Source of the DNA: Schaalia meyeri
GTDB lineage: Bacteria; Actinomycetota; Actinomycetes; Actinomycetales; Actinomycetaceae
Reading direction: 5' to 3'
DNA: 32,000 nucleotides
Assembly (NCBI RefSeq): GCF_900105015.1
Contig: NZ_FNLK01000015.1
Location: 60,001 to 92,000, forward strand
A program made the position numbers and the translations under genes. Below, in pieces: positions 16,302-26,886 of the stretch (position 1 is the stretch's first letter; each line of letters starts with the position of its first letter). The notes below the pieces were generated by a model, which made no database searches, had not been told where the DNA came from, and worked only from the letters and a program-made list of their open reading frames with translations.

Positions 16302-16525
16302 ACCCCTTCCCCGTAGCCGCCGCATCCAACGCCGCGACATAAACAGACCTGTCGCCTAAGTCGTCACGCAACCGGACGGCATGAGCACCAAAACGAGCGA
16401 TAGACACATAGGCACATGTCATGGATCACCCATACTTGTGCAACAAGCCTCCCCCCATCTTTCCTCATCGTTGCTACAGTAAACATTGCGTACGGATAAC
16501 ATACGTACAAATGAGAGAGATACCG

Positions 16526-16825
16526 ATGAGCACCGCGAAGACACGGCGCTTGGACCTGCGCCTGACCGAAACGCAGGACACCCTCATTCGCCGCGCAGCA
16601 GAACAGGAAGCTCGCAGCGTCAGCGATTTCGTCCTGTCCGCAGCTGCATTGGAAGCGCAGCGACGCCTGACCGACCAACGCGTATTTGTCTTGAACGACG
16701 AGCAGTACGCGCACTTTGAAGCAATCCTCCAGGCCCCGCTCAAGGACGATCCAAAACTGCGCAAGCTCTTCGAGCGCCCCTCACCCTTTGGCACCCACAT
16801 CGATACGAGCCCCGCGCGCCCCTGA
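16526..16825 (+). CDS. DUF1778 (TacA-like, RHH) antitoxin
   Basis: MSTAKTRRLDLRLTETQDTLIRRAAEQEARSVSDFVLSAAALEAQRRL...VFVLNDEQYAHFEAIL. Located 6 nt upstream of the GNAT toxin gene. Confidence 0.85.
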   Translation: MSTAKTRRLDLRLTETQDTLIRRAAEQEARSVSDFVLSAAALEAQRRLTDQRVFVLNDEQYAHFEAILQAPLKDDPKLRKLFERPSPFGTHIDTSPARP

Positions 16826-16831
16826 TCACTG

Positions 16832-17350
16832 ATGCACGTATCAGTCCTACAGGAGCCACGCCCCCTCGCCCACGGGGATGACCGCGCGCGTTTCCAATCG
16901 GGGAACGACGAGATTGATGACTGGTTCCACCGCTACGCTTGGCAGAACCAACAAGCGCGGAACGGGCGCGTATTCGTCACGGTACAGGAGCCTGAGACGG
17001 TCGGGTTCTACGCTCTCGCCATGGGTTCTGTGGAGCGCGGCAGGCTCCCGGCTCAACTAAAGCCGCAGCGCCGTCCAGATCCCTGCCCTTGCCTCTTGCT
17101 TGCCCGTCTGGCCGTCGACCGGCGAGCACAGGGGCGAGGCATCGGCGCGGCGCTGCTGAAAGATGCCCTATTGCGGGCCTACGTCCTCAGCCGTGAAGTC
17201 GGATTTGCAGCACTGTTGGTCCACTGCGCGGACCAACAGGCGCGCGACTTCTACCTCAGCCAGTCGTCGCAATTCGTTCCCTGCCCGGGGGCGGACAACC
17301 ATCTGATGCTGCCGCTTGGCGCGATCAAACGCTACGTCGAACACGTATGA
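16832..17350 (+). CDS. GNAT-family acetyltransferase toxin (TacT/AtaT-like)
   Basis: F.SGNDEIDDWFHRYAWQN..., VGFYALAMGSV, LLLARLAVDRRAQGRGIGAALLKDAL, and ALLVHCADQQARDFY. Canonical pairing with DUF1778. Confidence 0.85.
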   Translation: MHVSVLQEPRPLAHGDDRARFQSGNDEIDDWFHRYAWQNQQARNGRVFVTVQEPETVGFYALAMGSVERGRLPAQLKPQRRPDPCPCLLLARLAVDRRAQGRGIGAALLKDALLRAYVLSREVGFAALLVHCADQQARDFYLSQSSQFVPCPGADNHLMLPLGAIKRYVEHV

Positions 17351-18882: not shown

Positions 18883-19632
18883 ATGACGAACGACACCATT
18901 GCGCTTCAGCTCGCCCACCGCACGATCCGCGCCTACAAGGAGCAGCCCCTCACCGACGCCGAGGTCACCACCCTCATGGACGTGGCCCGCCACACGGCTA
19001 CGGCCTCCTACCTGCAGGCGTGCACGATTCTGCACATCACCGACCCGCAGATCCGCGAAAAGATCGCGGCGGCTTCCGGCCAACCCTACGTGGGTGGAAC
19101 CGCCGGCGACCTGTTCATTTTCCTGGTCGACATGTACCGAAACAGCCGTATCCGCGCCGAGCAGGGAGTCTCCTCGGAGGCCCTGTCTTCGATGAATCTG
19201 TTCCTCGCGGCGGCGGAGGATGCGCTGCTGTCCGCCCAGAACGTGGTGGTGGCCGCCGAGTCCATGGGCCTGGGGACCGTCTACCTGGGTTCCATCCTGG
19301 CGGATCCGCGCGGAGTCGTCGAGGCGCTAAATCTGCCGCCCCTGACGTTCCCGATCCTCGGCATGATCGTCGGGCACCCCGACCAGGAGCCGGGCATGAA
19401 GCCTCGCCTGCCGCTGTCGGTCATGACTGGCCAGAACACGTATCCGCACGTCGAGTCCTACACGGAGCTGCTGGCCGACTACGACCGCGAGGTCACCGAG
19501 TACTACGACCTGCGCAGCGGTTCGCGCCTGGAATCCTTCACGCACCTGGTGGGTACCGCCATCGGGGTGGGTGGCGCGCACGTGTCCCCCATCCTTGAGG
19601 TCCTGCACGAACAGGGGCTGTGCCTGCGCTGA
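18883..19632 (+). CDS. NfsA-like oxygen-insensitive NAD(P)H nitroreductase
   Basis: HRTIRAYKEQPLTD...ARHTATASYLQACTILHITD...VVAAESMGLGTVYLGSI...; length 249 aa. Confidence 0.85.
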   Translation: MTNDTIALQLAHRTIRAYKEQPLTDAEVTTLMDVARHTATASYLQACTILHITDPQIREKIAAASGQPYVGGTAGDLFIFLVDMYRNSRIRAEQGVSSEALSSMNLFLAAAEDALLSAQNVVVAAESMGLGTVYLGSILADPRGVVEALNLPPLTFPILGMIVGHPDQEPGMKPRLPLSVMTGQNTYPHVESYTELLADYDREVTEYYDLRSGSRLESFTHLVGTAIGVGGAHVSPILEVLHEQGLCLR

Positions 19633-19719
19633 CTCCCCTCTCGTGACGAGGCCGGCCGCCTCCGCTCATCCGAGAGTGGAGGACCGCCGCCCTCGGGTGA
19701 GCGCCCGTACAATTGGGGC

Positions 19720-20376
19720 ATGGCTGAGCTTGGTTTCTCCACGTACGTGTTCATCGAACGTATCGCCACCAACGCGGCCGCGCTGCACCCGTTCCCCGAG
19801 CACAACGTTGCCCTCGTGCGTGACGCGCTCGCCGACGCGGGATTCAGCATTTCCCTCCTGGGGCCGGACGCGCCGACGATCGGCGAGGGCGTGTACTTTC
19901 AGCCAGAACCCTTCGGCGACGAGGTCATGGGTCTGCTCGCGGACGCCCTGACCCTGCGCGGTATCGGCGCCTACGCGTATGCGCTGGTCGATTCGTCGAT
20001 GGGTGGAGAGCTGGCCGACATCGCCCTGTTCACGCGGGTCGGCGACGTGTTCCCGCGCTGCGGGCGTCGCATCCTCATGACGCGCATGTACATTCACCGC
20101 ACCCCCACGGGGGCGGGCAACAAGGCCGTGACCTGGGTCTTCGGGGCGCCCGCGGACCTGGAGGAGGCCAACGCGCTGTTGTCTCAGCACTTCGACACCG
20201 AACCGGTGCCGGATCCGCGGGGCATGGCGGCGATCGAGATCCGCCACCCGGAGTTCGCCGCCGGGACCGCCGAGCCGATGGTGCTCCTGGACGATATCTT
20301 CCAGGTCCTGGGCGCCGCCGGCTTCCAGGGCGTCACGATGTGCAACGCCCCGGGCGCTCAGCCTCCGCCGAGCTGA
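19720..20376 (+). CDS. Hypothetical cytoplasmic protein (218 aa); its last 111 nt lie inside the left 229-bp repeat
   Basis: Single long ORF in the sense frame; no motif recognised. Confidence 0.55.
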   Translation: MAELGFSTYVFIERIATNAAALHPFPEHNVALVRDALADAGFSISLLGPDAPTIGEGVYFQPEPFGDEVMGLLADALTLRGIGAYAYALVDSSMGGELADIALFTRVGDVFPRCGRRILMTRMYIHRTPTGAGNKAVTWVFGAPADLEEANALLSQHFDTEPVPDPRGMAAIEIRHPEFAAGTAEPMVLLDDIFQVLGAAGFQGVTMCNAPGAQPPPS

Positions 20377-20494
20377 CACACGCGACGGCGGCCACCACGC
20401 CAACCATCGCGGTCCGGCGGCAACCCAGCGCCGCCGGGTCAGCGAATCGCCTCCATGACACGCACCGCGTCAAGAACACTCACGTAGGGCAGGG
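20266..20494. repeat. Left copy of a perfect 229-bp direct repeat (partner at 22380-22608)
   Basis: Base-by-base reading shows identity over 229 bp, at an offset of 2114 bp. Divergence on both sides is immediate (ggg|A... vs aca|A... on the left; ...GGG|a vs ...GGG|g on the right). Confidence 0.95.
20439..20494 (-). pseudogene. Orphan 3'-terminal fragment of the response-regulator gene (duplicate of 22553-22608)
   Basis: Encodes ...PYVSVLDAVRVMEAIR-stop, identical to the end of the intact gene, with no upstream part. Confidence 0.8.
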
Positions 20495-20539
20495 AGCAAC
20501 GTCGATCAAAACATATCCCCCATGCCCTGATGATGATCA

Positions 20540-21163
20540 TTAGCCTAACTCCCCGCCGATAAATCGATCATGCAACTCGCCAAGACGTTGAACAGCTCGT
20601 TTGAGACTGTCAGACCGCTGTGCCGCTCGCCGAGCGTCCCACTCCTCGTCAATAAACCGTCTGATAAGTATGTGATAGCGGCTCCCGAATCTGTACTTCC
20701 CTGAGTGCTTGCTGGGTTCTCGCGCAAAGTCTTGCGCATTGCTCTTTCCGAGCCAATATACACAGCGCAGCATCCGCTCCTTGGCGTCCACCCCATTCGG
20801 GGACTCCACCTTCGCGAGAGGCATGTTAAAGAAGCGTGAGAAAGCCTGGTCATCCGCAAGAATCCAGCTCTCGATCTCGTTGTCACAAACACGCAGGAGA
20901 ACACTCTCCACGCTTCCCCCAGGAAGGAGTGAACGCCTAACCTCGACTGGACAATGACCGTCAGCATCAATAATAAAGATCCTTGGAACTGGCGAGGATT
21001 TAACGGCCTGTTTTCTCAGTATCTTCCCCACTTCACGGAACCCACCCTTGGCAAACACCATAAACTCATCACTGCCCCACCCCGCTGCCTTCATCACGGC
21101 AGAAACCACAGGCACATCAGTCTCTCCCTCGACGTAAACCAAGGCCGACATCCGATGACTCAT
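20540..21163 (-). CDS. Small TOPRIM-like protein (DUF4276/DUF4435-like), putative nuclease effector
   Basis: N-terminal LVYVEGETD (Glu12), IFIIDADG (Asp66/Asp68), and CDNEIESWILADD. 207 aa. ATGA overlap with the upstream ATPase gene. Family assignment is from motif memory, not from a search. Confidence 0.65.
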   Translation of the reverse strand: MSHRMSALVYVEGETDVPVVSAVMKAAGWGSDEFMVFAKGGFREVGKILRKQAVKSSPVPRIFIIDADGHCPVEVRRSLLPGGSVESVLLRVCDNEIESWILADDQAFSRFFNMPLAKVESPNGVDAKERMLRCVYWLGKSNAQDFAREPSKHSGKYRFGSRYHILIRRFIDEEWDARRAAQRSDSLKRAVQRLGELHDRFIGGELG

Positions 21164-22311
21164 GATCCGAGCCCAAAACTAGGCGTACCCTCCGTGCCCA
21201 AGAGAATACTAATGATCTCTGAGAAAGGGGTGTCTATATCGAGGTAACACGTAACATCTTCACGGTCACTGAGCAGACTTCCCTTCGTTCCGTCCTTTCC
21301 AGGAAGAAGCACCAGCACCTCTTCCGCACCAACCGACTCATCATCCACCACCTCAGTGGCGTGGCTTGACAAGATGGCCTGAACGGCTCCCTTCGCGTTC
21401 TTCCTCGCATCAGCTAAAACAGAAGGAAGCTTAGATACAAGCGCGGAATGCAACGAAAGTTCCGGCTCCTCAAGAAGCAACACACTGGATTTCTCCGCAG
21501 GAGTCGCGACCAGCGTCCACAGCAGCCCCAGTAATCGCAGGGTTCCATCAGAAAACTGCGTCTCATTTTGCCACGCCGCATGCGGCCTCCAATTCTTGTA
21601 TGCTGCTTCCAAATGCGGCACGCCCATAGAATCTTTTTCCAGCCTCAGCTTCTCGAACTCCGGAATCGCCCGTTGAAGGGCAGCCTGCACGCGCTTCAGC
21701 CTAGCATCCTGCGTTCTCTTAGGCGTTTCGCTAATTTGCCGAATAAAATCGGAACCGTATGGGTCCGCGGCTTTGATCTCATTGCCCGTCAGTCCCCGAA
21801 TTACTTGCGGAACGGGATGAAAGTACCTGGTCTGCGCAAAGAAATCAGCAATCTTGCGAAACTCTTTGTTCGTTACTTTCTGCTCCAAATACGTCTGCGT
21901 GAGCAGCTCCGTATCTTCCTTATCCCCCTTTGTCGGGCGCTTTAGCACCCGCTTCCCATTAAACTCAACCCTCTCTTCCTCAACCAGCACCCTCCGATGT
22001 CCGGACCCCTCCTGGCGAATGACCAACACATACCGCCATTCATCGTCCCCGTCCCGCATTTTTACATCAATGCTCGGAGAAGGGTGCTGCCGACTAAACA
22101 GGCTGCGTACCTTCTTTAGCCCTCCACGCTGTTCCACGGCCTGGGCCATTCCGCCGCCTGGCGCGACGATGTCCCCAAGAAAACGAAAGACGTCAAGAAG
22201 GTTCGATTTACCGGCAGCATTCGGCCCCACGATAAAGAGCCTATGGCCTACATCGAAGCTCAGATCCCGAAAGTTCTTCCAGTTCTTAATACGCACATGT
22301 GAAAACTCCAT
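21160..22311 (-). CDS. ABC/OLD-type (AAA_15/AAA_21-like) ATPase, 383 aa
   Basis: VRIKNWKNFRD...FIVGPNAAGKSNLLD (Walker A, 22204-22227), a long helical insert, the signature-like QFSDGTLRLLGLL, Walker B SVLLLEEPELSLH, and ILSSHATEV. RBS GAGGGTGG lies before ATG 22311. Confidence 0.85.
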   Translation of the reverse strand: MEFSHVRIKNWKNFRDLSFDVGHRLFIVGPNAAGKSNLLDVFRFLGDIVAPGGGMAQAVEQRGGLKKVRSLFSRQHPSPSIDVKMRDGDDEWRYVLVIRQEGSGHRRVLVEEERVEFNGKRVLKRPTKGDKEDTELLTQTYLEQKVTNKEFRKIADFFAQTRYFHPVPQVIRGLTGNEIKAADPYGSDFIRQISETPKRTQDARLKRVQAALQRAIPEFEKLRLEKDSMGVPHLEAAYKNWRPHAAWQNETQFSDGTLRLLGLLWTLVATPAEKSSVLLLEEPELSLHSALVSKLPSVLADARKNAKGAVQAILSSHATEVVDDESVGAEEVLVLLPGKDGTKGSLLSDREDVTCYLDIDTPFSEIISILLGTEGTPSFGLGS

Positions 22312-22379
22312 GCCGCCACCCTCATTGGATCGAATACATACCGTAAATACAATATACCGCCCATCACATCACCCCCACA
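22312..22379 (-). promoter_or_regulatory. AT-rich 5' region of the cassette; presumed own promoter
   Basis: The minus strand reads ...GGTATATTGTATTTACGGTATGTATTCGATCCAATGAGGGTGGCGGCATG, with several TAnnnT candidates. No confident -35. Confidence 0.3.
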
Positions 22380-22490
22380 ACCGCCGAGCCGATGGTGCTC
22401 CTGGACGATATCTTCCAGGTCCTGGGCGCCGCCGGCTTCCAGGGCGTCACGATGTGCAACGCCCCGGGCGCTCAGCCTCCGCCGAGCTGA
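22380..22490 (+). pseudogene. Orphan 3'-terminal fragment (36 codons + stop) of the 19720..20376 gene
   Basis: Encodes ...AEPMVLLDDIFQVLGAAGFQGVTMCNAPGAQPPPS-stop, identical to the end of the intact gene, with no upstream part. Confidence 0.8.
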
Positions 22491-22608
22491 CACACGCGAC
22501 GGCGGCCACCACGCCAACCATCGCGGTCCGGCGGCAACCCAGCGCCGCCGGGTCAGCGAATCGCCTCCATGACACGCACCGCGTCAAGAACACTCACGTA
22601 GGGCAGGG
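22380..22608. repeat. Right copy of the perfect 229-bp direct repeat
   Basis: Identical to 20266-20494. Confidence 0.95.
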
Positions 22609-23023
22609 GATTAACCCCGGCTTCCAGGACGAACTCGGTGAGCTGGTCACGCACCGTCTCGCGCAGCTCGTCGGGGTTCCACGGCTTGGCGATGTAGTAG
22701 TCCAGGCCAGCCTGATTGACCGCCCGAATCGTGTCCGACTGGTCCGCCTGGCCGGTCACCAGCACCGTTCGGGTTGCGCCGAAACGCTCGTCCTTCATGA
22801 GCTCCACCAGAAAGTCCACGCCCGACTTGCCGGGCAGCCGGTGATCGGACAGGACCAGCGCCAGCTCATCCCCGTCCTCGACGATCTCGTCGACGACGGT
22901 CCACGCGTCGTCAACGTCCTCGGCGACCTCAAGCCTGATGTGATCCCAGAACTGTTCGAGATCGCGCTCAAGCGCGTCACGCACGTCTGCTTCGTCCTCA
23001 AGGGACAGGATTGTCAGGGTCAT
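22553..23023 (-). CDS. Single-domain (REC-only, CheY-like) response regulator with short C-terminal extension
   Basis: MTLTILSLEDEADVRD..., acceptor context LALVLSDHRLPG, TVLVTGQAD, and YIAKPW. ATGA overlap with the kinase stop. Confidence 0.9.
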   Translation of the reverse strand: MTLTILSLEDEADVRDALERDLEQFWDHIRLEVAEDVDDAWTVVDEIVEDGDELALVLSDHRLPGKSGVDFLVELMKDERFGATRTVLVTGQADQSDTIRAVNQAGLDYYIAKPWNPDELRETVRDQLTEFVLEAGVNPLPYVSVLDAVRVMEAIR

Positions 23024-25128
23024 GATTCCTCCTCGTGTGGTTGTGTGGGCAGCAGGATCCGCATGGTCGTGGACCCCGGGTGGGTGTCGATCGCGAGGGA
23101 GCCCCCGTGGTCGGCGATGATGGTTCGGACGATGGACATGCCCATGCCCAGCCCGAATCTGACGCGCCCCGCCTTGGTGGTGAAGTGGGGTTCCATGATC
23201 TTGTCGACGATTCCCGGGTCTATACCCGGTCCGTTGTCGCAGATGGTGACGCTCACGCACCCCGGTGCGGGTCGCACGGTGATGCGGATCAGGGCATCGG
23301 CCTCGCCGCGCGCCGGCAGCTCGGGCACGCCGCCCGCGTTCTCCGCTGCCGAGGCCTTGTCGGCGGATTCGTCCTCGATGGCCTCTGCGGCGTTGACGAT
23401 GAGGTTCGTCCACACCTGTTGCAGCTTCGCGGGGTGCGCGTAGACGGGCGGCACGTCCTCGTAGTCGCAGTCGATACGGATGCCCCGCACCCTGTGCGCG
23501 GTCAAGCGCAACACGTCGTCGATGCCGTCGCGCACGTCCACCGGTTTGAGATCCTCAGCATCGGGGCGCGCGTATCCCTTGAGGGACTGCGTCAGCTCAA
23601 TAACGCGATCGGAGGCGGCCAGCACCGAGCGCAGGGAACCTCCCAGGCGCGCCCCGGCCTCGTAGGCGTCGATGCCTCCGGGGGTGCGCGCGAGCGTTCG
23701 TGCCCCTTCGGCCCCCTGCACCCCCGCGCGTACCAGGCGGCGCGCCAGGGTGTGGTCTGCGACGACGGGCAGGAGCTCCCTGATGAGGGCACGCTCGACG
23801 GACGTGGAGCGCGGCGGCACGGTCAGGGCGCGCGCCATGGCCTCCCGGGACGAGGCCGCGGCCGGGGACGCGAGGACCGAGTCGACGTCCTCGTGGAGGT
23901 GTTTCGCGGCGCGCACCAGCGCGGTCACCGGGTTGTTGAGCTCGTGGGCGATCCCCGCGCTGAGTTCGCCAAGCATGGCGAAGCGCGCGCGTTCGACCAG
24001 CTCGGCCCGGGTGGCACGCAGGTCTTCGAGGGTGGCGGCCAGCGCCTGCTTTTGGGCCTCAAGGTCCTCGGCGAGCATAGCGTTCTCCAGGTGCAGGTCC
24101 TCGGCCCGCATGAGGCGGCGGGTCAGGGAGCGGATGGCTAACGCCGTCAGCGTGGCACCGATCGAGGGGTCCTCGGAGATGACGATCTGCAGCTGCTCGG
24201 TCGTGAGGCGCACGAGCGTCGCCTCGCCCGTCGTGGTGCCCGTGAAGAACGCGTTCTCGGCGCGGGCCAGGGACACGAGGCCGATGAGCGGGCCGGAGGA
24301 CGCCAGGTGCGCCAGCACCTCGCCCCTCGCGGAATCACGGTGCAGGGACACTTTTCCGTCGAGCACCAAATACACGGCCCACACGGGTTCCCCCTGCGTC
24401 ACCAGCTGGATTCCCCCCGGGACGACGAGCCGCGGCCGCTGGCCGAGGACCCGCTCGACGCCGGCCAGGAGCTCCATGACCACCTCGTGTTCGTCTCGGT
24501 CCAGGCCCTCTAGGAGCGGCCCCTGCACCGCGAATGGTGGCGGGTCGGCGATGAGGGAGCGGATCTGGCCCTCCGAGTATCCGCATCCGCGCAGGTAACG
24601 CACCATTGTCGAGTACGCCTGGCCGGCCAGCAGCGGCAGCGTCCACGGGGACTTCAGGACCGAGGAGAGGGCACCCGATTGCATGCACCGGGCGAGGTCC
24701 CGGTGCTGCGCGGCGTCCGTGACGACCACCCACTGCATGCCGCGCAGCACCGGGATCGTGGCCGCGCAGTCGATCAGCTCGTCAATATCGGGCACTTCGG
24801 AGGTGACCAGGCCCATGAGCACGTGGTCCTGGGCCCCCAGGCTCGCACCGTAGTCCACCAGGTCGCCGGCGCCGTCCACGCGGTCCAGGCACAGCCCGGG
24901 GAACGCGTCGGCCAGGTCGCGGGTGACCGGCGCCGCTATCGAACGTGAGTCGTCGCCGACGACCAGCAGGTGAATGGGGTATCCCGCGCGGTGCCCGCCG
25001 CTGCGCACGTCGGTGCGGGCGAGCACCGACGCGTCCTCGGCCATGGGGCCCCGCGTCCACCCGCGGGCCAGCCCCGGCCTGGGCTGCGCCTGCGCGCCCG
25101 AGCCGGCCACGGCCGCATCCATGGACAC
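23020..25128 (-). CDS. Soluble hybrid sensor histidine kinase: receiver-like N-domain + cyclic-nucleotide-binding domain + HisKA + HATPase_c
   Basis: The REC-like segment (IHLLVVGDD...LKSPW) is at ~aa 52-160. The cNMP-binding-like barrel (LVTQGEPVWAVYLVLDGKVSL...GPLIGLVSL...ATLVRL) is at ~aa 205-340. H-box FAMLGELSAGIAHELNNP (His395), N-box QVWTNLIVNAAEA, and G-boxes ICDNGPGI and GLGMGMSI. No TM segments. Confidence 0.85.
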   Translation of the reverse strand: MSMDAAVAGSGAQAQPRPGLARGWTRGPMAEDASVLARTDVRSGGHRAGYPIHLLVVGDDSRSIAAPVTRDLADAFPGLCLDRVDGAGDLVDYGASLGAQDHVLMGLVTSEVPDIDELIDCAATIPVLRGMQWVVVTDAAQHRDLARCMQSGALSSVLKSPWTLPLLAGQAYSTMVRYLRGCGYSEGQIRSLIADPPPFAVQGPLLEGLDRDEHEVVMELLAGVERVLGQRPRLVVPGGIQLVTQGEPVWAVYLVLDGKVSLHRDSARGEVLAHLASSGPLIGLVSLARAENAFFTGTTTGEATLVRLTTEQLQIVISEDPSIGATLTALAIRSLTRRLMRAEDLHLENAMLAEDLEAQKQALAATLEDLRATRAELVERARFAMLGELSAGIAHELNNPVTALVRAAKHLHEDVDSVLASPAAASSREAMARALTVPPRSTSVERALIRELLPVVADHTLARRLVRAGVQGAEGARTLARTPGGIDAYEAGARLGGSLRSVLAASDRVIELTQSLKGYARPDAEDLKPVDVRDGIDDVLRLTAHRVRGIRIDCDYEDVPPVYAHPAKLQQVWTNLIVNAAEAIEDESADKASAAENAGGVPELPARGEADALIRITVRPAPGCVSVTICDNGPGIDPGIVDKIMEPHFTTKAGRVRFGLGMGMSIVRTIIADHGGSLAIDTHPGSTTMRILLPTQPHEEES

Positions 25129-26797: not shown

Positions 26798-26802
26798 AAT
26801 CG

Positions 26803-26886
26803 TGCGCGAGGGGGGAGTTGAACCCCCACTCCATCACTGGAACACGGACCTGAACCGTGCGCGTCTGCCTATTCCGCCACTCGCGC
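26803..26886 (-). tRNA. tRNA-Leu (anticodon CAG)
   Basis: Cloverleaf read by hand on the minus strand. Acceptor GCGCGAG/CTCGCGC; anticodon stem CACGG/CCGTG with loop TTCAGGT; long variable arm TTCCAGTGATGGAGT; T arm GGGGG-TTCAACT-CCCCC; discriminator A. CCA is not encoded. Confidence 0.9.

Follow-up and report, generated by a model that had tools for sequence, protein, structure and literature searches.

A two-gene cassette in Schaalia meyeri, an oral member of the Actinomycetaceae, is probably an old insertion, accompanied by a lengthy duplication of its target, that lies at a recombinase-free hotspot and is flanked by repeat copies that recombination keeps identical. The cassette encodes HEC-01, a candidate defense system that pairs an ABC-type ATPase with a TOPRIM-like protein, and it separates two convergent genes that encode a response regulator and a protein of 218 amino acids. 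All coordinates given without a contig name refer to a 32-kb stretch of S. meyeri DNA, hereafter termed the window. Two segments of the window, 20266–20494 and 22380–22608, are identical at 229 of 229 positions by direct string comparison, and the match stops abruptly at both ends. A repeat search of the window returned the same pair as 240 nt at 98%, and a 40-mer taken from the repeat occurs twice in the 32 kb, with no occurrence expected by chance.

Each repeat copy is composed of the last 111 nt of the 218-aa gene, a 62-bp spacer, and the last 56 nt of the response-regulator gene. Both genes are whole on one side of the cargo and are represented on the other side by an orphan 3′ fragment. 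A preliminary description made from the window alone had reported this identity, the gene-end and spacer content and the orphan fragments, all of which were reproduced by direct comparison. The cargo between the repeats (20495–22379; 1,885 bp) comprises a 68-bp leader, two genes with a 4-nt overlap, and a 45-bp tail, and its junctions with the repeats show 0–1 nt of microhomology. The GC content is 53.3% for the cargo, 65.8% for the window, and 70.3% for the 229-bp repeat. The features of the locus are as follows.

19720..20376, plus strand: intact 218-aa gene of the left flank (from the list of open reading frames), with its last 111 nt inside the left repeat copy
20266..20494, no strand: left 229-bp repeat copy, comprising the 218-gene 3′ end, the spacer, and an orphan response-regulator 3′ end
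20377..20438, no strand: 62-bp intergenic spacer, left copy, structured on both strands
20439..20494, minus strand: orphan last 56 nt of the response-regulator gene, equal to 22553–22608, with no coding sequence upstream
20495..20539, minus strand: 45-bp cargo tail downstream of HEC-01B, missing at empty sites; in the sister species it is 95% conserved and has an identical junction
20540..21163, minus strand: HEC-01B, 207 aa, TOPRIM-like partner (PADLOC PDLC04194)
21160..22311, minus strand: HEC-01A, 383 aa, ABC-type ATPase (AAA_21; PADLOC PDLC04180, Pfam)
22312..22379, minus strand: 68-bp AT-rich cargo leader, 92.6–100% conserved in relatives, where it meets the orphan at an identical junction
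22380..22608, no strand: right 229-bp repeat copy, comprising an orphan 218-gene 3′ end, the spacer, and the functional response-regulator 3′ end
22380..22490, plus strand: orphan last 111 nt of the 218-aa gene, equal to 20266–20376
22553..23023, minus strand: intact response-regulator gene of the right flank, 156 aa (Pfam Response_reg, 9e-13), with its last 56 nt inside the right repeat copy
23020..25128, minus strand: histidine kinase carrying a cNMP-binding domain, in the same orientation as the response regulator (Pfam HATPase_c, cNMP_binding)

Scanning metagenomes with the response regulator gave 80 loci, in 59 of which both flanking genes could be placed, whereas a scan of a genome collection with HEC-01A, seeded with exact peptides, gave only two close relatives (L036 and L037). 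The comparison set consists mostly of metagenome contigs (L numbers), with species assigned by identity levels. Contigs L013–L016, whose flanks are 96.5–99.8% identical to the window over ~6 kb on each side, carry an identical response regulator, the 62 bp, and the 218-aa gene, and hence a single 229-bp copy that is 100% identical to those of the window. This is the conspecific empty site that the preliminary description had anticipated, and these assemblies show that filled and empty alleles coexist within the species.

The filled layout is also unlikely to be a product of assembly. A single 229-bp segment might in principle have been wrongly doubled around a contaminant or a misjoined contig, as short-read assemblers break at repeats and many contigs do end within this one. 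However, more than 15 independent assemblies (among them L005, L020–L029, L047, L060, L069, and L073), one of them the isolate genome GCA_000185285.1, span both copies. In several of these the two copies differ by 1–18 single-nucleotide polymorphisms, which neither collapse nor false duplication would generate, and in L003, L010, and L011 each repeat junction is covered separately. Judged from these assemblies, an artifact is very unlikely and can be regarded as effectively refuted.

The age of the insertion is indicated by its junctions. Variants of HEC-01A with 95–96% identity occupy the same place in a sister species, Actinomyces sp. oral taxon 180, which is represented by the isolate GCA_000185285.1 and by many metagenome contigs. 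Between the window and the sister-species loci (L020–L029 and L047), the flanks are 86–88% identical and the cargo is 92–94% identical, and all four junctions (regulator to repeat, orphan to leader, tail to orphan, and repeat to 218-aa gene) are the same to the nucleotide. A more distant cassette lineage (L051 and L048), in which HEC-01A is ~76% identical at the nucleotide level, retains a decayed 111-nt 218-gene orphan that is colinear with that of the window up to the same orphan–leader junction. In Pauljensenia hongkongensis HKU8 (L037), 14 nt are kept across an orphan–leader junction of the window type. These comparisons show that the insertion predates the split of species-level lineages, and at least the 218-gene orphan part of the duplication predates cassette lineages that are ~24% diverged.

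The repeat itself has changed since that split, in both copies at once. The sister-species repeat is 223 bp long and differs from that of the window by 33 substitutions and 12 gap columns (window compared with L020), each of these 45 differences being shared by the two copies in either genome. Across 11 sister-species contigs the repeat has 23 variable columns. The two copies within a genome differ at 0, 2, 1, 1, 1, 0, 0, 18, 0, 1, and 0 positions, whereas repeats from different genomes among the same contigs differ at a mean of 5–7 and a maximum of 18–20 positions. A block of ~15 linked spacer variants is found in both copies in L023 but only in the regulator-side copy in L027, which looks like an intermediate that has not yet been converted. 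Two spacer or hairpin haplotypes, defined by ~15 linked positions (repeat columns 66–94 of L020–L029), segregate in Actinomyces sp. oral taxon 180.

These patterns of co-variation show that the two repeat copies evolve in concert. Unconstrained orphans should differ at dozens of sites given the time since the species split (flank dS, or synonymous divergence, of 0.44–0.65), and identity of the repeats must therefore be actively maintained. Shared junctions and co-varying repeats together thus indicate that the perfect identity reflects concerted evolution and not youth. The preliminary description had offered a recent event or ongoing conversion as the two readings of this identity. The former does not survive the finding of the same junctions in a sister species with 12–14% diverged flanks and of a decayed orphan in a 24% diverged lineage, while the latter is borne out by repeats that differ between species at 45 positions yet are identical within each genome. 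It had also held that a shared arrangement with diverged repeats in all relatives would mark the structure as ancient and fixed; the arrangement is indeed shared, but the repeats are homogenized and empty alleles coexist with filled ones.

Cargo and flanks have different histories. Relative to the sister species, dS (Nei–Gojobori) is 0.19–0.26 for the cargo and 0.44–0.65 for the flanks, a twofold contrast that may be partly compositional in origin, given that the GC content at third codon positions is 59% in the cargo and ~88% in the flanks. The 5- to 10-fold contrast with the L001 type (0.014–0.03 for the cargo and 0.12–0.20 for the flanks) is more robust, and in such close comparisons the values show that cargo alleles are younger than the flanks. 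The converse is also observed. L043 and L048 have response-regulator genes that are 100% identical and 218-aa genes that are 95.6% identical, but their HEC-01A genes are only 70.5% identical, and L030 and L037 combine 99.5% identical flanks with cassettes of 89.5% identity and different junctions. The dS contrasts and the presence of divergent cassettes within near-identical flanks suggest that deep cassette alleles segregate and exchange at one site. The coexistence of two HEC-01 alleles with ~70% DNA identity at one site in one species (L043 compared with L048 and L051) is reminiscent of balancing selection at an immune locus.

The site is not reserved for HEC-01. Nineteen of the 59 placed loci are empty, with a gap of 59–93 bp, and the remainder contain HEC-01 alleles, Abi_2/AbiD alleles (PADLOC AbiD, 1.5e-64), unknown small membrane-protein genes, or insertion sequence (IS) elements. 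Alternative cassettes, or none, are therefore found between the response-regulator and 218-aa genes, as in a recombinase-free hotspot. Cassettes can stack in either order with copies of the gene-end and spacer module between them. The L001 type is arranged as regulator, module, orphan, HEC-01, orphan, Abi_2, and 218-aa gene, with copies that are 87–89% identical; HEC-01 thus precedes Abi_2 in L001 and follows it in L043, where an Abi_2 remnant lies before HEC-01 and each is bracketed by 46-bp repeats. L018 carries Abi_2 alone.

The contig comparisons further show that other cassettes at the site carry duplications of their own. A cassette of ~660 bp and 54% GC, here called cassette X, has no convincing open reading frame or family match (L097, 5230–5892). 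At least nine contigs show it between two copies of a segment of at least 230 bp; the copies are 70–83% identical and cover the last 150 nt of the response-regulator gene and the hairpin. As read from these contigs, the duplication around cassette X is a second long target duplication at the site with a different boundary, 150 nt inside the regulator gene. Contigs with cassette X include L097, L109, L105, L110, L131, L096, L108, L113, L117, and L049. The extent of the duplication varies among HEC-01 loci as well.

L030: ~15 bp around HEC-01
L043: 46–55 bp around HEC-01
L036: 83 bp around HEC-01
L037: ~117 bp around HEC-01, from a different neighbor gene (2-thiouracil desulfurase)
Window and sister species: 223–229 bp around HEC-01

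The repeat in L037 (6738–6920 and 8765–8881) corresponds to the 3′ end of the 2-thiouracil desulfurase gene, a gene that the locus in the window lacks. One of its copies has a 66-bp internal insertion carrying a tandem motif, and the 3′ end of HEC-01B overlaps the convergent desulfurase reading frame. An Abi_2/AbiD allele that is 51% identical to that of L018 lies between 38-bp direct repeats with 97% identity in L105 (2528–2565 and 3791–3828) and L117 (7399–7436 and 11141–11178); IS-type transposase genes (rve, Mutator) lie between these repeats as well in L117. Small predicted membrane proteins of ~90 and ~126 aa are encoded at the hotspot in L098 (4571–7202), L121 (6576–7779), L115, and L065, and L098 additionally encodes proteins of 253, 102, and 324 aa. 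These other unknown cargos have no Pfam or PADLOC match and could be uncharacterized defense or toxin modules.

More distant HEC-01 loci in other phyla (L038–L041; 41–49% identity) have no flanking target duplication in four of four cases, and no general rule for the HEC-01 family emerged from these four loci. A 48-bp repeat pair in L038 was rejected as a target duplication, as it sits in the C-terminal coding parts of two neighboring genes. The motif TGTGGG opens the leader in the window (22379, minus strand), L020 (5933), L043 (5724), and L037 (~6921), where the upstream orphans end at different positions. In L036 the motif lies 63 bp inside the leader, and the leader of the window shows a better alignment with an internal stretch of L043's longer leader. 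As TGTGGG may be a promoter element, a cassette end, or a chance occurrence, it was not used as evidence for a defined cassette end.

The spacer within the repeat is strongly structured. RNA folding gave −42 and −49.9 kcal/mol (z = −4.6 and −4.3), and none of 200 shuffled sequences was as stable. A consensus terminator scan did not call its hairpins, which lack a T run, and from the folding predictions the 62-bp spacer is probably a bidirectional terminator without a T-tail. A sigma-70 consensus scan called no promoter in the cargo leader, which presumably holds its own promoter. No Rfam family was detected in 19500–23100 at E ≤ 1. The 218-aa gene, which is conserved next to the response-regulator gene at the empty sites L013–L016, has no match in Pfam or NCBIfam.

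No inverted repeats were found at the cargo ends in the repeat search, and neither the cargo nor the window reading frames that were scanned or read yielded an integrase, transposase, or resolvase domain. The preliminary description had likewise noted a cargo free of integrase, transposase, and terminal inverted repeats; its estimate of ~50% GC for the cargo was a little low. The element also does not qualify as a DNA transposon, given that it has neither a transposase nor terminal inverted repeats and that its duplication is 229 bp long instead of short and of fixed length.

The cargo had been described as defense-like, and profile searches agree with that assignment. HEC-01A matches PADLOC model PDLC04180 over residues 1–371 (E = 7.7e-157) as well as Pfam AAA_21 (3e-31), and HEC-01B matches PDLC04194 over residues 3–201 (E = 5.7e-61); in Pfam, the latter has only DUF3226/DUF4276 matches below threshold. 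The HEC-01A protein is identical to one annotated in Schaalia meyeri genomes. Relative to the sister species, dN/dS is ~0.14 for HEC-01A and ~0.17 for HEC-01B, and on these ratios both genes are under purifying selection. Neither protein has a methyltransferase or restriction domain in Pfam or PADLOC searches. The pairing of an ABC-type ATPase with a TOPRIM-like protein is shared with PARIS (AriA/AriB), OLD-family systems, and Gabija, and HEC-01A has weak matches to the AriA, GajA, AbiLi, and MAD3 models; unlike in those systems, however, the best and near-full-length matches of the cargo are to the HEC-01A and HEC-01B models.

HEC-01 is the Hma-embedded candidate 01 of PADLOC, an ABC ATPase and a TOPRIM-like protein found within Hma (helicase-methylase-ATPase) systems, and it gave no protection in a heterologous phage test (bioRxiv 10.1101/2024.01.29.577857). 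In the window, adjacent A and B genes match the two models, but the neighbors are a two-component system and the 218-aa gene, with no Hma genes. Embedding in Hma was the route by which HEC-01 was discovered and is not necessarily a requirement. Because HEC-01 was unprotective in the heterologous test, the label of anti-phage defense stays a prediction, and the cargo is a candidate system.

The interpretation we favor, an old insertion with copies kept identical by recombination, may be put as follows. A self-contained HEC-01 operon with its own leader would have inserted long ago between the convergent response-regulator and 218-aa genes, duplicating a module in which the terminator-like 62-bp spacer lies between the last 56 nt of the regulator gene and the last 111 nt of the 218-aa gene. 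Because the whole module was duplicated, both resident genes keep their native ends and terminator. Host homologous recombination, by RecA-type gene conversion or unequal sister exchange, would homogenize the copies. Recombination between the repeats would pop out the cargo and one copy precisely, restoring the empty allele, and relatives would supply cargo anew through homologous recombination within the flanks or repeats, with a Campbell-type single crossover as one possible route. A dedicated recombinase would not be involved. The first duplication may have arisen when a staggered or two-sister break was repaired with captured DNA, when replication switched templates at the hairpin, or when a circle carrying 229 bp of local sequence integrated.

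Several points weigh against this interpretation. The junctions in L036, L043, and L030 differ from those of the window, which implies either secondary rearrangement or independent insertions, and a single ancient event is insufficient to explain them. In-place gene conversion, repeated excision and re-integration, and amplification followed by collapse would all homogenize the repeats and are not separable. Chimeric contigs are possible among the metagenome assemblies, where species calls rest on identity levels. The compositional component of the twofold dS contrast and the negative phage test of HEC-01, both mentioned above, count on the same side.

The layout was previously noted to be what a Campbell-type single crossover would give, and it is: the arrangement has precisely the topology of an insertion-duplication, with one copy at the empty site, although a long target duplication yields the same topology. 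If a 2,114-bp circle (cargo plus 229 bp of homology) had entered the empty site recently through a single RecA-mediated crossover, the identity of the repeats would reflect youth. Because the 229 bp of the conspecific empty site match both copies with 100% identity, perfect repeats would result from a circle of conspecific origin. The relative youth of the cargo alleles also fits, as do the heterogeneous copies in L027 and the L001 type, which would be expected after integration of a non-identical circle. Such a scenario nevertheless explains propagation and not origin, as the circle must already hold both cargo–repeat junctions, and these junctions, being common to species that are 12–14% diverged and to a cassette lineage that is 24% diverged, point to an old structure. 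Products of cross-lineage integration would be reciprocally chimeric and non-identical, and conversion would still be needed to produce species-specific, internally identical repeats. No circle junction distinguishable from the chromosomal layout was recovered. Contigs of cycle length (2,141–2,144 bp) recur in Logan assemblies and would suit a circle, but a de Bruijn graph cycle gives the same. L008 (2,144 bp), P0126 (2,143 bp), and P0127 (2,141 bp) each comprise one period of 2,114 bp and a terminal overlap of ~30 nt, and they were rejected as evidence for a circle, since a length of one period plus k−1 is that of a repeat-induced graph cycle; amplification or free circles would also fit them. 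We consider a recent Campbell integration unlikely. It is likewise conceivable, though doubtful, that the hotspot is a recombinase-free cassette array whose unit is a cassette with one gene-end and terminator module, from which RecA would excise circles that re-insert by single crossover into a resident module. If so, the module would play the role that attC sites have in integrons, and stacking in either order, homogenized modules, and cargo younger than its flanks would all be explained. In a stronger version of this proposal the first long duplications may have been made actively, by spacer breakage or by the cargo TOPRIM nuclease.

Differences in duplication boundary among the HEC-01 lineages and cassette X at the same intergenic site could instead arise if an active process inserted cassettes repeatedly and independently while generating long target duplications of variable extent, for instance through cleavage by the cargo TOPRIM nuclease or breakage of the spacer followed by end-joining or template switching. 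The strong structure of the spacer and the 0–1 nt of junction microhomology are compatible with this process, and DNA breakage by the cargo was proposed by Furuta et al. (2010) to lie behind the long-target-duplication insertions of restriction-modification systems. The window-type junctions, however, are inherited and not new, variable extents could equally reflect decay or deletion of orphan copies, the four distant HEC-01 loci in other phyla have no flanking target duplication, and a link of HEC-01 to DNA breakage in vivo has no experimental basis; this explanation is distinctly unlikely. Highly improbable is a cis-mobilizable remnant (CIME-like) that is moved by a recombinase acting in trans, with the repeats as attL and attR, the 3′ end of the response-regulator gene as target, and the orphans as replacement gene ends. 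An orphan response-regulator 3′ end does follow several cassettes (56 nt for HEC-01 and 150 nt for X), as in integrase elements that target gene 3′ ends, and some oral taxon 180 contigs carry a gene for a large serine recombinase at a distance of ~5 kb. Against this, the cargo and the scanned or read window reading frames contain no integrase, and the duplication spans the ends of both convergent genes. The duplications, of ~15, 46–55, 83, ~117, 223–229, and at least 230 bp, have no common core, some of them being non-overlapping (only the 218-gene end in L043 and only the spacer in L030), and for this reason a trans-acting integrase is disfavored. Site-specific recombination would also not explain the identity and co-variation of the copies over their full length.

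Insertion with long target duplication has been described for restriction-modification systems (Nobusato et al., 2000, Gene 259:99; Furuta et al., 2010, NAR, PMC2853133). As characterized in the latter report, these units are smaller than 20 kb and lack mobility genes, are flanked by direct repeats of 46–423 bp that often span the stop or start of the flanking genes, and have atypical GC content; a related genome has a single copy at the empty site (PMC2853133). The mechanism was not established there, cargo DNA breakage was proposed to underlie the insertions, and a life cycle of insertion, amplification through the repeats, and release was put forward (PMC2853133). The locus in the window resembles this class in its repeats of more than 30 bp (229 bp, 100% identical), its single-copy empty site, its repeats that take in flanking gene ends, its atypical GC content, and its 1,885-bp insert, in which no mobility genes were found. 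Unlike that class, its cargo is an ABC ATPase/TOPRIM pair and not a restriction-modification system, and the match is structural and not by cargo. It adds population and cross-species evidence of lasting concerted evolution, as well as a hotspot that holds several cassettes each with its own duplication, neither of which was seen in the available portion of Furuta et al. (2010). The locus thus extends the known class to a different defense candidate and does not constitute a new category.

With core defense hotspots and the minimal mobile elements found in Neisseria, the window site also shares the character of a recombinase-free site where cassettes lie between conserved genes. Minimal mobile elements consist of differing cassettes, or none, between conserved genes; they have no known associated recombinase, are presumably exchanged via flanking homologous recombination, and are not known to require a duplication of the site, unlike the window cassette, which is flanked by one. 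As in Campbell-type integration of a circle, the insert lies between direct repeats as long as the shared homology and would be reversible through them, but unlike a laboratory or plasmid Campbell circle, the locus has no known circle or replicon, its junctions are ancient, and the identity of its repeats is probably maintained by conversion and does not reflect recency. Literature searches on Campbell-type integration, direct repeats, defense hotspots, and concerted evolution of island-flanking repeats returned nothing specific.

The surroundings of the hotspot contain further features. At 16421–17350, a TacA-like antitoxin gene (134 aa; PF08681 in homologous loci) lies beside a GNAT acetyltransferase toxin-like gene (172 aa; Acetyltransf_1/7), and the two probably form a toxin-antitoxin pair of the TacAT type, ~3 kb from the hotspot. 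The segment 14600–16400 has lower GC content and varies among conspecific contigs (a 297-aa gene in some, a 204-aa PASTA/Excalibur protein in others), and looks like a second variable region in the neighborhood. A tRNA-Leu(CAG) gene is present at 26802–26886. Contigs of Actinomyces sp. oral taxon 180 encode a large serine recombinase (Resolvase/Recombinase, 473 aa) a few kb past the transporter gene on the tRNA-Leu(CAG) side; the window has no equivalent.

Many defense systems reside in hotspots without recognizable mobility genes, and their gain and loss are poorly understood. The locus described here illustrates that perfect identity of flanking repeats should not be taken as a sign of a recent event, as such repeats can persist in identical form over the long term through concerted evolution. 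It also offers a naturally polymorphic and densely sampled system from the human oral microbiome, in which empty, single, stacked, and decayed alleles coexist and which would allow direct measurement of how cassettes are lost, amplified, and re-acquired through host recombination.

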